DNA of 64,000 nucleotides, taken from positions 221,221-285,220 of the forward strand of contig CAWIFV010000009.1 of the NCBI GenBank assembly GCA_963835405.1. Reading direction: 5' to 3'. Both the position numbers and the translations under genes were made by a program. Of the stretch, positions 24,691 through 42,966 are shown in pieces. Numbering within the stretch: position 1 is the stretch's first letter; each line of letters begins with the position of its first letter. Source of the DNA: an uncultured Actinomycetota bacterium. GTDB lineage: Bacteria > Actinomycetota > Actinomycetes > JAFAQI01. Below the pieces are notes generated by a model. That model had not been told where the DNA came from, made no database searches, and saw only the letters and a program-made list of their open reading frames with translations.

Positions 24691-25535
24691 GGCCTCTCCC
24701 CGCAGCATCCGATCAGTGCCGTCACGAGCCGCTGAGCGTGGTCGTCGAGGTCGATGCCGCCGACCTCGGACGCTCGCCGCAGCCGGTAGCGCAGCGTGTT
24801 GGGGTGCACCCGCAGCTCCCCGGCCGTCGGCGCTGTCTCCTGGTTGTTGCGCAGCCACGTGGTCACCGATCGCAGCAGGTCACTGCCCTGGCGGTCGTCG
24901 GCCTCGGCGAGCGCGGCGACCGGGTTGCCGACCGGCAAGGCGGCGGGCAGCGCCTCGACGAGCCGGGCGAGCGTGACCTCCGCCCAGACCTCGTCCACGC
25001 AGAGCAGGCCGGTACCTCGCCGGCCGGCGAGGACCGCGGCGTCGACGGCGTCCCGGGTGGCCGCGGGAAGGTCGGCGATGCCGGTCAGCCGGGCGCTGAT
25101 CCCAGCCGTCACGGCGAGATCGGCGGCCGACTGCCGGCAGGCGTCGAGGGCGATGCGCCGGGCGGCCGGGAGAGCACGGTCGGCACCGGCTCGCCGCGGC
25201 GAGCCGCGCAGCACCGCGACGGCGTGCCCGGCGGAAGTCGTGATGGCGACGACGTCGCGGTCGTTCTCCAGCGCCACTGTCGCGAGCCGACCCGACCTGG
25301 CATCCGGACGGCTGATCGCGACCACCCGGCCGCCGGTGACAGCAGCGTCCAGGACCTGAGCGTCACCGGGCGACGCGGACCGGGCCAGCACGCGGGTCAG
25401 CGCCGCATCGGCCGGCCGTCGTACAGCGGTCTCCCCCTCGCCGGCCAGCAACGCCTCGACGCAGTCGGTGAGCGTCGCGAGTGCTCGGCGCAGCTCCGCG
25501 CTGTCACCGGACGGAGCGGGAAACGTGATCGTCAT
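24687..25535 (-). CDS. PucR/CdaR-like transcriptional regulator (C-terminal HTH)
   Basis: The C-terminal segment TAGELRVHPNTLRYRLRRASEVGGIDL is typical of PucR-type HTH domains. The ATGA start overlaps the upstream lipoprotein stop. Confidence 0.7.
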   Translation of the reverse strand: MTITFPAPSGDSAELRRALATLTDCVEALLAGEGETAVRRPADAALTRVLARSASPGDAQVLDAAVTGGRVVAISRPDARSGRLATVALENDRDVVAITTSAGHAVAVLRGSPRRAGADRALPAARRIALDACRQSAADLAVTAGISARLTGIADLPAATRDAVDAAVLAGRRGTGLLCVDEVWAEVTLARLVEALPAALPVGNPVAALAEADDRQGSDLLRSVTTWLRNNQETAPTAGELRVHPNTLRYRLRRASEVGGIDLDDHAQRLVTALIGCCGERP

Positions 25536-27039
25536 GGCATCGGATAGGTGCGGCCGACGTACCGGAAGCAGGAGCAGGCGTCGCGCCACACGACGTGCCG
25601 GTAGACCCGCGGGACGTTGTTGCGCCACGCTGGCCGGAACGACGAGGCACCGTCGTAGTTGAGCGTGCTGAGGAAGTCGCCGACCTTTCCAGCCCACCGA
25701 TGACGGTCGCGCCGGCACTGCCACCGCCGACCTGTAGTGCCCGCTCGTAGACGAAGAGCGACTCGCAGGCGCTGTAGGCGAAGCCGAAGTCGGCGGCCGA
25801 ACGCGGCACTATCCCCTGGGACTCGAGCAGCCCGAGGCAGCGGCGCTGCGTCGCATTGGGCTTCGAGTACTGCGCAGGCGTGACGTCCTGGCTCTCCAGC
25901 CACCCGTAGCCGTGGACGTTGCGCAGCTGGCTGGTGGGCGCCTGGCCGATCTGGATGGCCAGGTTGGCGAGCGAGGAGACGATCCACGTGGGGTGATAGC
26001 CCTGGGACTCCGCAGCCTCGCTCAGGACCAGGAGCGCCGGCCCTTCGGAGACCGTGAAGAACGTGATGCGGTCGACACCCTTGCTGCGATAGGTGAGCAT
26101 GGCGTTGCCCGCCGAGCTCACCGCGTTGGCCGTGCTCGCGTTGTTACCCGTGCCGCAGCCATAGTCCTGCACCGCCGCGACGTTGATGTGTGCTTGTTTC
26201 AGGTAGGGCTCGATCGTGGTCTTCCAGGCGTGCTGCGTGCCGGGGCAGTCGTCGACGAGCACGCCGAGCTTGTTCTGCGGGGTGAGCACGCCCGTGGCCA
26301 TCGCGCCCTGGATCTTGGCGATCGACCGTTCGTCGATGGTCGGCGTCTCGAGCGCCCAGAACAGCGGCCACTGCCGGAGCTCGGCGTTGTCGGGGATGTT
26401 GAACGACGTCGTGAGGTGCGGGATCCCCGCACGGGCGAGGCAGGACTCGAAGTTGCGCTGGTAGTCGAAGGCGTAGCCGAGGACGACCTGCACGTGGTCG
26501 TCCTGGGTGAACGCGGCGCAGGCCGCCTCGAAGTCGGTCGACCAGTTGGTGGTCCCGGTATCGGTCTTGGCATAGACCGGCACGATCTTGCGGCCGTTCA
26601 GGCCACCGCGCCGGTTCATCGCGCGGACCAGCGCCTCGTCGACGTCACGCTCGTCGTAGGTGTTGCCGAGACTGATGCCGAAGTCATCGGCGTTGCTGAC
26701 GCCGGTGAGCAGCATCCCGACCTTGATCGGCCCATGGGTCGAATTCGCCGCCGGCGGTGGCACGCCGACGGTCACGGGCGCGGCAGGGCCACGCGAGGCG
26801 TCGACGCGGGGAGCACCAGCGCCGGTCGTCGCGCCCGGCGCGACGGCGTCGTGACCCATCCCGTCGCCCGTCGACGATGCCGCGCCCGATCCGCCCGGCG
26901 CGGCGCTCACCCCGCCCTCGACGGCGCCCGGCGCCGCCAGCCCGGAACCGGCGAGCGACGCCGTCCCCGTCGCCTGGATCGTGCTGCCGCAGCCGGCGGT
27001 GAGGGCGAGCGCGGCAACCGCGAGCAGCGGCCTACGCAT
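25532..27039 (-). pseudogene. binding-protein-like lipoprotein (paralog family, copy 1) with one frame change near the 3' end
   Basis: It has a lipobox (LALTAGC). The body is alignable with the copy at 33179-34720. At about 25690 the reading frame breaks where the paralog reads GLGKVG: CTGGAAAG is present where CTGGGAAAG would restore the frame. The conserved tail WRDACSCFRYVGRTYPMP lies in the other frame. Confidence 0.75.
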
Positions 27040-41482: not shown

Positions 41483-42966
41483 AGCGCCTCATCCTGCTCC
41501 TCGCCGCCGCCCTTGTGAGCACGGCCTGCGGCAGCACCGTCCAGACGCAGGGCCAGGTCACGACGAGCGGCGACAGCCTCTCCCCCGGCACGCAGCAGCT
41601 CCAGGGAGCCACCGGCTTGGAGAGCCCAGCGATGGGCAGCGGTCCCACCACAACAACCGGGAGTACGCCGGGGAACGTCACCGCCCCGAGGCGAGCGGGA
41701 GACCCCGGCGTCGCGGCGCGACCAGCGGCGACGGTGAAACCCGTATCGGCGCAGGGCGCGCCGATCGGGAAGACCGACCCGATTCAGATCGGCTTCGTGA
41801 CGACGAGCGTCGGCAACGCCGAGGCATTCGGCGTCAACGCGGGCCAGTCCTACACCGACAAGTCGATGTTCCAGGCCATGGTCGCCGAGTACAACGCCCA
41901 TGGCGGGGTCGCCGGGCACCGCATCGTGCCGGTCTATGGCGCGACCGACACGGCCAGCAGCGACTGGTCGACCCAGTTCCAGGCAGTCTGTGCAAAGTTC
42001 ACGCAGGACAACCACGTGCAGGTCGTCATCGGCTACATCTTCGTGTTCTTGCCGTCGTTCGAGCGCTGCCTCGCCAACGCCGGTGTGCCACATCTTTACG
42101 CGGGCTACCAGCCAGGAGACGTGATCGACCAGCAGCAGTTCCCGACCATGGTCTCGACCGCGCACCCGACCGTGGACGGATTCGACCTGACCGCGCTCGA
42201 GGGTGCCCTGCGCACCGGCCTGCTCACGAAGTCGACGAAGCTCGGCATGATCATCGACACCTGCGCCGACGGTGACCGGGCATACCGGCGCTCTGTCGAG
42301 CCCTGGTTGAAGGCTCACGCCATCAACTACATGACATTCATCGGAGACTGCGCGCGCGGCGCCACCGATGCGTCCTCCGCCTCGTCCGCGATCAGCAGTG
42401 CCGAGCTCCAGTTCTCGACGTCCGGCGTCAACCTCGTTTTTGGTAACGCGGTCGAGCTGCTCCTCTTCATGAACGACGCGCAGACTCAGGGGTACAGGCC
42501 GGAGTACCTCACGGCCAGCGGCGGCGGCGCACTCCAGGCCAGCGGTGCAGCACCCACCAGCCAGATGCAGCATCTACACGGCTTCGGCTGGACGCCCGCG
42601 ATCGACGTCGACCTTCAGCACCAACCCACATCCCCTAGCCCTTCCCAGAAGACCTGCGTGGCCAGGCTGAAGCATCACGGTCTCCAACCGAAGGCTTACA
42701 ACGACTTCATGGCGGCCTACGCGACGTGCGACGGGCTCGACCTCTACTCGCGAGCGCTCGCGGCCGGCGCAACGACCCCGCGGCCAGTTGTGGACGCGGT
42801 CCTCGCCGCGCAAGCCCATCTCGCCGGCGCGCTCACCTACGGCGGGCGACTGCGCGCCGGCCCCCATCAGCGCGGTGGACCTCGCCTCTACCGCGAGTAC
42901 GGATGGACCGACTCCTGCAAGTGCCTGACCTACCGAGGCGGCGTCTACCCGCTCCCGACCCCGTAA
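41479..42966 (+). CDS. binding-protein-like lipoprotein (paralog family, copy 4), intact
   Basis: It has a lipobox (LVSTACG) and a body alignable with the other copies (AVCAKFTQDNHVQVVIG, FERCLANAGVPHL). The tail is WTDSCKCLTYRGGVYPLPTP. The GTGA start overlaps the esterase stop. Confidence 0.8.
   Translation: MKRLILLLAAALVSTACGSTVQTQGQVTTSGDSLSPGTQQLQGATGLESPAMGSGPTTTTGSTPGNVTAPRRAGDPGVAARPAATVKPVSAQGAPIGKTDPIQIGFVTTSVGNAEAFGVNAGQSYTDKSMFQAMVAEYNAHGGVAGHRIVPVYGATDTASSDWSTQFQAVCAKFTQDNHVQVVIGYIFVFLPSFERCLANAGVPHLYAGYQPGDVIDQQQFPTMVSTAHPTVDGFDLTALEGALRTGLLTKSTKLGMIIDTCADGDRAYRRSVEPWLKAHAINYMTFIGDCARGATDASSASSAISSAELQFSTSGVNLVFGNAVELLLFMNDAQTQGYRPEYLTASGGGALQASGAAPTSQMQHLHGFGWTPAIDVDLQHQPTSPSPSQKTCVARLKHHGLQPKAYNDFMAAYATCDGLDLYSRALAAGATTPRPVVDAVLAAQAHLAGALTYGGRLRAGPHQRGGPRLYREYGWTDSCKCLTYRGGVYPLPTP

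Follow-up and report, generated by a model that had tools for sequence, protein, structure and literature searches.

The stretch of DNA considered here (the window) comprises 64,000 nucleotides of an uncultured Actinomycetota bacterium (GenBank assembly GCA_963835405.1, contig CAWIFV010000009.1), with a base composition of approximately 70% G+C, and carries four paralogous genes for cysteine-rich lipoproteins that resemble the binding proteins of Liv-type ATP-binding cassette (ABC) importers. When copies 2 and 4 were used as tblastn queries, exactly four full-length relatives were recovered in the window, at the positions where an earlier note, made from the letters alone, had placed them. Copy 1 (27039-25532, minus strand) encodes a CxC-tailed Liv-type binding lipoprotein of about 502 amino acids once a one-base frameshift is bridged, copies 2 (33179-34720, plus strand) and 4 (41479-42966, plus strand) are intact CxC-tailed binding lipoproteins of 513 and 495 amino acids in translation, and copy 3 (37905-39405, plus strand) is the most divergent, with its lipobox, linker and body (38188-39405) lying in three different frames. 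Relative to copy 2, tblastn identity amounts to 52% for copy 1, 34% for copy 4 and 28% for copy 3, and besides the four copies the same search returned a single weak match at 14343-14963. An independent short-read contig (L059) confirms copy 2, being 100% identical to the window over positions 32418-35151.

The translations contain the lipoboxes LTAGC, AAC, AAAC and STAC, each followed by a linker of approximately 80-100 residues rich in glycine, alanine, proline, serine and threonine, a type-I binding-protein body and a C-terminal CxC motif, an architecture that had been read from the sequence beforehand and that is borne out by the translations together with AlphaFold modelling and Foldseek comparison. 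All of the sequence blocks that had been listed as shared (GPIKVG, RGGL.GR.I.PVYAKTDT, FTQDD, CLARAGIPHL, PTID.RSIAK, CPGTQ.AW, RSKGVDRITF and QRRC) were found again, as were the four CxC tails. An export signal with a lipobox cysteine is present in 4/4 window copies, in 60/68 family members of related loci and in 128/144 representatives of the family.

An AlphaFold model of the copy 2 body (residues 108-513), built on a 38-sequence alignment, reached a predicted local distance difference test score (pLDDT) of 91.8 and a predicted template modelling score (pTM) of 0.91, and Foldseek retrieved 459 PDB matches for it at E<=0.001. The leading matches are Liv/HAAT binding proteins (E about 1e-14, template modelling (TM) score 0.63-0.77, identity 11-16%), among them 4n0q (leucine-binding), 4jb0, 4f8j and 4evs (aromatic-acid-binding), 4mlc, 1usg and 4gnr, which supports the type-I fold originally proposed. 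Among the matches listed, the bacterial proteins bind leucine, aromatic acids, urea and, in the case of the actinomycete protein 4n03, fatty acids, and eukaryotic glutamate-receptor ligand-binding domains, which have the same fold, rank lower. The sequence profile of the family likewise matches only the same Liv/HAAT class in the PDB. Curated models respond below threshold: Pfam Peripla_BP_5 scores the window copies at 12.6-21.4 bits against a cut-off of 27, and the sole NCBIfam match, UrtA, reaches 14-20 bits, so that structure and profile comparison provided the family assignment. Precomputed PF13458 matches exist for some homologues, and relatives have already been labelled branched-chain amino acid ABC binding proteins by annotation pipelines. 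Judged from these comparisons and from the profile alignment with a Peripla_BP_6 protein of the window described below, the window copies are clearly homologous to Liv/HAAT binding proteins yet lie outside the current curated family boundaries.

The C-terminal CxC is a real hallmark of this family, being found within the last 30 residues of 140/144 diverse representatives and hence conserved well outside this genome. A full-text literature search for a CxC motif in solute-binding proteins gave nothing relevant, and neither that search nor Pfam and NCBIfam yielded a description of the tail, in keeping with the earlier remark that it is not recognisable as a described feature. The cysteine pattern was counted in 188 near-full-length family sequences, using the numbering of copy 2: all eight cysteines are present in 111 sequences, C274 and C304 are both absent from 71, C500 and C502 are both absent from five, and one sequence is poorly aligned, whereas loss of a single partner cysteine was never seen. 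C183, C209, C410 and C434 are invariant. The view that the cysteine positions recur in all four window copies holds for six positions, although not for the C274/C304 pair, which is absent from copy 3. Since partners are lost only together, we infer from these co-occurrence statistics that C274 and C304 form a disulfide, that C500 and C502 make up a unit of their own and that C183, C209, C410 and C434 are joined by two bonds. In the copy 2 model the C500/C502 unit is flanked by strands at 383-390 and 395-404, and the terminal CxC is most likely a local disulfide at the turn before the last strand. Paired cysteines are common in exported actinobacterial proteins. Another terminal CxC was noticed in an open reading frame (ORF) at 48209-49615 on the minus strand, whose 468-amino-acid product has a signal peptide, is rich in Ser/Thr/Tyr/Asn, lacks a Pfam match and ends in VCDC; it lies inside positions 48001-50000 (GC 0.63), the only clearly lower-G+C patch of the window.

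The family is large, and essentially all of it comes from uncultured Actinomycetota. A word-indexed search gave 54 homologues, all from metagenomes or metagenome-assembled genomes (MAGs), and an exhaustive profile search gave 5,338 clusters at 50% identity for E<=0.001 and 2,387 for E<=1e-30. All 48 of the 48 loci found in species-representative genomes belong to uncultured Actinomycetota, mostly labelled Mycobacteriales, Frankiales or Frankiaceae with a few Acidimicrobiia, and none comes from an isolate.

To what extent these binding proteins are associated with transporters is best seen in their relatives. Related loci were searched for with a 16-sequence alignment, and the window proteins were compared by tblastn with 58 loci; the 52 non-redundant loci that were counted are all from uncultured Actinomycetota. 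A set consisting of an ATPase, a fused LivHM permease and a second ATPase lies at most 10 kb from a family member in 17/52 non-redundant loci, in 12/32 of those flanked on either side by 5 kb or more and in 10/25 of those flanked on either side by 8 kb or more, mostly 3-6 kb downstream and on the same strand. By rough estimate rather than computation, based on the usual number of Liv systems in such genomes, a random position would fall this near a Liv system in only a few per cent of cases, far under what is observed. It had been stated beforehand that homologues routinely encoded beside LivHMGF-type permeases would speak against the earlier interpretation; such permease and ATPase genes do occur in related loci, directly downstream of the closest relatives of copy 4 among others, and the notion of a family never paired with permeases is not supported. 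The association with enzymes is of similar weight: an esterase, a beta-lactamase-fold hydrolase or an AMP-ligase lies within 5 kb in 28/52 loci, and per class the linkage (17 loci each for Abhydrolase_3 and AMP-ligase, 16 for the beta-lactamase fold) is equalled by that of the Liv set.

Individual loci illustrate both associations. In L022, L023 and L024, whose binding proteins are 66-70% identical to copy 4, a LacI gene on the minus strand, an esterase and the binding protein are followed by a Liv-type transporter, and in L024 the transporter genes come after the equivalent of the window's esterase 42977-43930. In L012, L013 and L014 (54-57% identical to copy 1) the order is AMP-ligase, binding protein, esterase and then transporter, and an AMP-binding gene preceding a family member is also found in L004, L005, L017 and L018. 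The closest relatives of copy 2, L001 and L002 (74%), have no permease within 10 kb; a GH94-like gene lies 20-30 bp upstream of them (L001 7634-9970, L002 7696-9981), so that a glycosidase neighbour recurs while its family changes, copy 2 itself having a divergent GH3 gene with a PA14 domain. At L008 (3904-8127) a distant member, 27% identical to copy 2 and with the CxC kept, shares overlapping start and stop codons with the TetR gene that precedes it and with the amidase gene that follows, an arrangement that resembles amide-catabolic operons. Linked and detached copies coexist in single MAGs (SMAG_U6130, where L022 is linked and L018 and L049 are not, SMAG_U6196, BP_98 and 3_4_m_bin13), the pattern expected if several receptors share one translocator. 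LivJ and LivK of Escherichia coli are a known example of more than one binding protein working with a single translocator.

The family-linked permeases constitute a clade of their own, with 50-82% mutual identity. The architecture of the linked transporter is unusual, as it includes a lipoprotein of 171-178 amino acids, an MFS-like membrane domain fused to a LivG-type ATPase (733 amino acids in L007) and a LivH-LivM-LivF fusion of 1050-1069 amino acids that ends in a helix-hairpin-helix (HhH) domain. It was seen at L007 9677-16725 and L024 13789-19803, and also in L012-L014, L019, L022, L023, L029, L040 and L057.

In the window itself, Pfam annotation of the neighbouring genes showed no permease or ATPase gene adjoining any of the four copies, as had been stated previously, and bore out the serine hydrolases, hormone-sensitive lipase (HSL)-type esterases, GH3, acyl-CoA enzymes and PucR, TetR and LacI regulators that had been described, adding a PhyH-type dioxygenase to them. 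Overall, the neighbours amount to three Abhydrolase_3 genes, two beta-lactamase-fold genes, a GH3 with PA14, a split AMP-binding gene, a thiolase-like gene, a split short-chain dehydrogenase/reductase (SDR) gene, the PhyH dioxygenase gene and one regulator each of the PucR, TetR and LacI types. On the minus strand, copy 1 is followed downstream by the gene of a PucR-type regulator (24687-25535), then by those of a beta-lactamase-fold hydrolase (23419-24858) and of an Abhydrolase_3 esterase (22199-23488). Upstream of copy 1 lie an AMP-binding gene of the acyl-CoA ligase type, split between two frames (27032-28772), and the other beta-lactamase-fold hydrolase gene (28693-29955). Two genes, also on the minus strand, diverge from copy 2, one for a TetR regulator at 29959-30588 and one, from 30588 to about 33080, for a cytoplasmic GH3 glycosidase that contains a PA14 insert; downstream of copy 2 on the plus strand follow the PhyH-type dioxygenase (34735-35601, a gene also called on L059), the SDR in two frames (35598-36564) and the thiolase-like protein (36564-37757). 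Upstream of copy 4 lie a LacI regulator (39501-40487, minus) and an Abhydrolase_3 esterase (40505-41482, plus), and another Abhydrolase_3 esterase (42977-43930, plus) starts 10 bp after it.

The coupling between these genes is tight. The start codon of copy 1 (ATG, 27039) and the stop codon of the AMP-binding gene (27032) overlap, the stop of copy 1 overlaps the PucR ATG in the tetranucleotide ATGA at 25535-25532, and copy 4 starts with a GTG that overlaps the stop of the esterase gene upstream, indicating that binding-protein genes sit inside enzyme operons and that copies 1 and 4 are co-expressed with the adjacent enzyme or regulator genes. When the N-termini of the translated genes were read, no signal peptide or lipobox was found on the hydrolases, GH3 or ligase of the window, the GH3, for instance, starting with MDVEDVLARMTLEEK.

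Beyond the second esterase, a DUF2786/DUF7168 gene and an unknown gene (a 357-amino-acid ORF) occupy 44021-45969 on the minus strand, at the very site that the transporter genes take up in the clusters of L022-L024, and this site may represent a rearrangement or insertion breakpoint. A tRNA scan found no tRNA anywhere in the window that could mark an integration site near the DUF2786 genes, and no remnant of a family-linked transporter was found in the window; the MFS gene at 45892-47172 was considered as a remnant of the MFS-like domain of the linked transporter and rejected, as it shows no similarity. Signalling and redox genes are found at 16278-20992 and 54261-56243 (Rieske, GAF-EAL, FAD oxidoreductase, response-regulator receiver and PAS-PAS-GAF-SpoIIE phosphatase), and do not belong to the recurring context of the family.

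The only Liv-type importer of the window, at 9148-15848, comprises on the plus strand a Liv-type ATPase (domain at about 9871-10608), a fused LivH-LivM permease (10467-12590), a second Liv-type ATPase (about 12590-13378) and its own Peripla_BP_6 binding protein (14343-15848), all identified by Pfam; its nearest Liv genes are 9.7-28 kb from the four copies. The binding protein of this importer had been described as unrelated to the four copies and as lacking the CxC tail. The latter part stands, whereas the former does not; the protein is a distant relative, because hhalign aligns it to the family profile over 362 columns with a probability of 98.2% (E 4e-14) and it has the four invariant cysteines of the family. 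The importer was also considered as an instance of the family-linked transporter and rejected, since its permease is about 35% identical to the linked permeases, compared with 50-82% inside their clade, and it has no MFS-like domain.

The integrity of the four genes requires some comment. In copy 1 a one-base frameshift near 25690-25700, at GGLx|KVGDF, places the CxC tail in another frame, and copy 3 has two shifts, one right after the lipobox near 37960 and the other at a run of six G at 38183-38188, the window being without any G or C run longer than six. Further genes are split between frames, namely the AMP-binding gene 27032-28772, the SDR gene 35598-36564 and an acyl-CoA dehydrogenase gene at 2910-5839. 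Such splits may stem either from indels introduced by a long-read assembly or from genuine decay of the genes. Because splits affect other genes across the window as well, and because one of the sites is a homopolymer run, the frameshifts of copies 1 and 3 resemble assembly indels at least as much as decay.

On balance, these data point to detached binding lipoproteins of a divergent Liv-type subfamily that feed a Liv-type importer and whose import is used by a co-expressed cytoplasmic pathway, a reading to which we assign a probability of about 75%; the four genes are real paralogues and most likely do not represent a new kind of system. The proteins they encode are lipid-anchored outside the cytoplasm and belong to a cysteine-rich Liv/HAAT subfamily (type-I fold, COG0683-like), and each would capture a small organic substrate outside the membrane and pass it to the importer. 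In the cytoplasm the substrate would then be processed by the enzymes of these operons, namely esterases of the HSL type and of the beta-lactamase fold, a glycosidase, an acyl-CoA ligase and the thiolase, SDR and dioxygenase, and sensed by the adjacent one-component regulators PucR, TetR and LacI. The eight conserved cysteines would form four disulfides in the oxidising cell envelope, with the CxC stapling the turn before the last strand.

With regard to the substrate, the esterases, the acyl-CoA ligase, the thiolase, SDR and hydratase genes and the LacI, TetR and PucR regulators suggest esters, amides or glycosides of hydrophobic acids, or the acids themselves, and the most likely substrate seems to be an ester or an amide, or else the hydrophobic acid that corresponds to it; the esterase and CoA-ligase context makes a branched-chain amino acid unlikely. 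As no permease adjoins the copies, the partner would be encoded at another site of the genome and resemble the transporters that accompany the relatives, the resident system at 9.1-15.8 kb being a less probable candidate; the distinctness of the linked permease clade from the resident permease makes a partner encoded outside the window the probable case. The proposal, made beforehand as one of several options, that several receptors feed a shared transporter fits both the Liv linkage of relatives and the MAGs that hold linked and detached copies. Several points weigh against this reading: the window holds no transporter of the family-linked clade, the sequence of the copies points to no particular ligand, more than half of the well-flanked related loci are without a permease within 10 kb, the resident permease is distant from the linked ones and already has its own binding protein, the Pfam scores of the window copies stay below threshold, and frameshifts in two of the four copies may have left these without function.

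The latter point leads to a different account, in which the locus is decaying: once the copy 4 cluster had lost its linked transporter, the detached copies would have had no further use, and copies 1 and 3 would by now be pseudogenes. The frameshifts in these two copies, and those in the adjoining AMP-ligase and SDR genes, would agree with such a process, as would the fact that DUF2786/DUF7168 genes on the other strand occupy the site where relatives have the transporter. However, third-position GC stays high in the shifted frames and none of the conserved motifs, the CxC tail among them, has been lost, so that any inactivation would be very recent, similar splits occur outside the cluster (in the acyl-CoA dehydrogenase gene, for example), one shift of copy 3 falls in the G run, and the pattern as a whole suits indel errors of a long-read assembly; moreover, copies 2 and 4 are intact and the former is supported by an independent assembly. 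Decay is therefore considered unlikely. It has also been weighed whether the proteins might be extracellular sensors or co-receptors which, when bound to ligand, dock on a membrane signalling protein such as a kinase, chemoreceptor or cyclase instead of a transporter. Binding proteins are known to feed signalling proteins (review PMC8050422), a permease is missing from the vicinity in over half of the related loci, and the window encodes PAS/GAF-SpoIIE, GAF-EAL and response-regulator genes. The latter, however, are at least 10 kb away and outside the recurring gene set, no membrane sensor gene adjoins a copy in the window or a family member in the loci with annotated gene lists, the adjacent PucR, TetR and LacI regulators are one-component proteins of the cytoplasm, which the ligand has to enter before they can sense it, and the linked membrane partner, where present, is always a Liv-type transporter, all of which renders a sensory role quite improbable.

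A further option of the earlier note, that the lipoproteins capture substrate and present it to the co-encoded hydrolases outside the cell, draws on the tight co-encoding with esterases and beta-lactamase-fold hydrolases found across the related loci. This option fails on topology, since the hydrolases, GH3 and ligase of the window, without signal peptide or lipobox, appear cytoplasmic, the acyl-CoA ligase and thiolase depend on ATP and CoA, both of them cytoplasmic compounds, and the binding proteins are exported, which places the supposed partners in different compartments; it is regarded as extremely improbable. Going beyond the favoured reading of detached lipoproteins that feed a Liv-type importer, one may speculate that the CxC lipoproteins are a distinct receptor class of uncultured soil Actinomycetota, with more than 2,000 clusters, which would work with the importer of MFS-LivG and LivHM-LivF-HhH architecture in the uptake of esters, amides or glycosides in intact form, the CxC serving as a redox-sensitive or docking gate for hand-over; this extended proposal is rather improbable.

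As to what these results mean, they remove the tempting over-interpretation of binding proteins that work with hydrolases instead of permeases, and they delimit an uncurated Liv branch of 2,387 clusters, essentially all from uncultured Actinomycetota, with a diagnostic signature made up of a lipobox, a linker, four paired cysteines and a terminal CxC. A curated model and one measured ligand would improve the annotation of thousands of soil-metagenome genes currently labelled as branched-chain amino acid binding, and would also point to what abundant soil actinomycetes import.

Among known systems, the closest likeness is to the LivJ/LivK-type proteins of HAAT importers (TC 3.A.1.4; Peripla_BP_6/Peripla_BP_5; COG0683), with which the window copies have the two-lobed type-I fold and export in common, and relatives of the family are, as in those systems, encoded with LivH/LivM-type permeases and LivG/LivF-type ATPases. 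Unlike the solved Liv members (11-16% identity), the window copies have a lipid anchor with a long low-complexity linker, eight conserved cysteines and a CxC tail, and unlike LivJ/LivK-type proteins they are detached from a permease and have Pfam scores under the cut-off. AmiC, the amide sensor of Pseudomonas aeruginosa, is comparable in that a type-I Liv-like fold is encoded with an amidase, which calls to mind the coupling of L008 to an amidase gene. AmiC is cytoplasmic and acts through the AmiR antiterminator, whereas the window proteins have lipoprotein export signals and no AmiR-like partner.

Further parallels come from Rhodopseudomonas palustris, of which CouP/RPA1789 (4jb0, 4f8j; aromatic acids) is among the best structural matches of copy 2, and RPA3723-3725 (fatty and dicarboxylic acids), beside the pim beta-oxidation operon, are Liv-type binding proteins with genes for acyl-CoA ligase and beta-oxidation as neighbours (PMC3223731). 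In the latter work, detached ("orphan") binding proteins were described as common, and several COG0683 binding proteins beside a beta-oxidation/acyl-CoA-ligase operon were reported to bind fatty and dicarboxylic acids, for which one shared transporter was proposed (PMC3223731). The ligands of the R. palustris proteins are hydrophobic acids and not amino acids. These proteins are proteobacterial and periplasmic and lack a lipid anchor, linker or CxC tail; the window family, unlike them, has esterases and glycosidases in its context. An actinobacterial Liv-type counterpart is the fatty-acid binding protein of Thermomonospora curvata (4n03; Foldseek E 7.6e-13, TM score 0.64-0.66), which is also a weak profile match, although only 14% identical to copy 2. 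In conclusion, the kind of protein encountered here, a Liv-type binding protein, is known and relatives have already been annotated as such, whereas the very large uncultured-actinomycete subfamily beyond curated models, its invariant arrangement of cysteines, of which a terminal CxC is part, and the esterase and ligase context that recurs around it are new.

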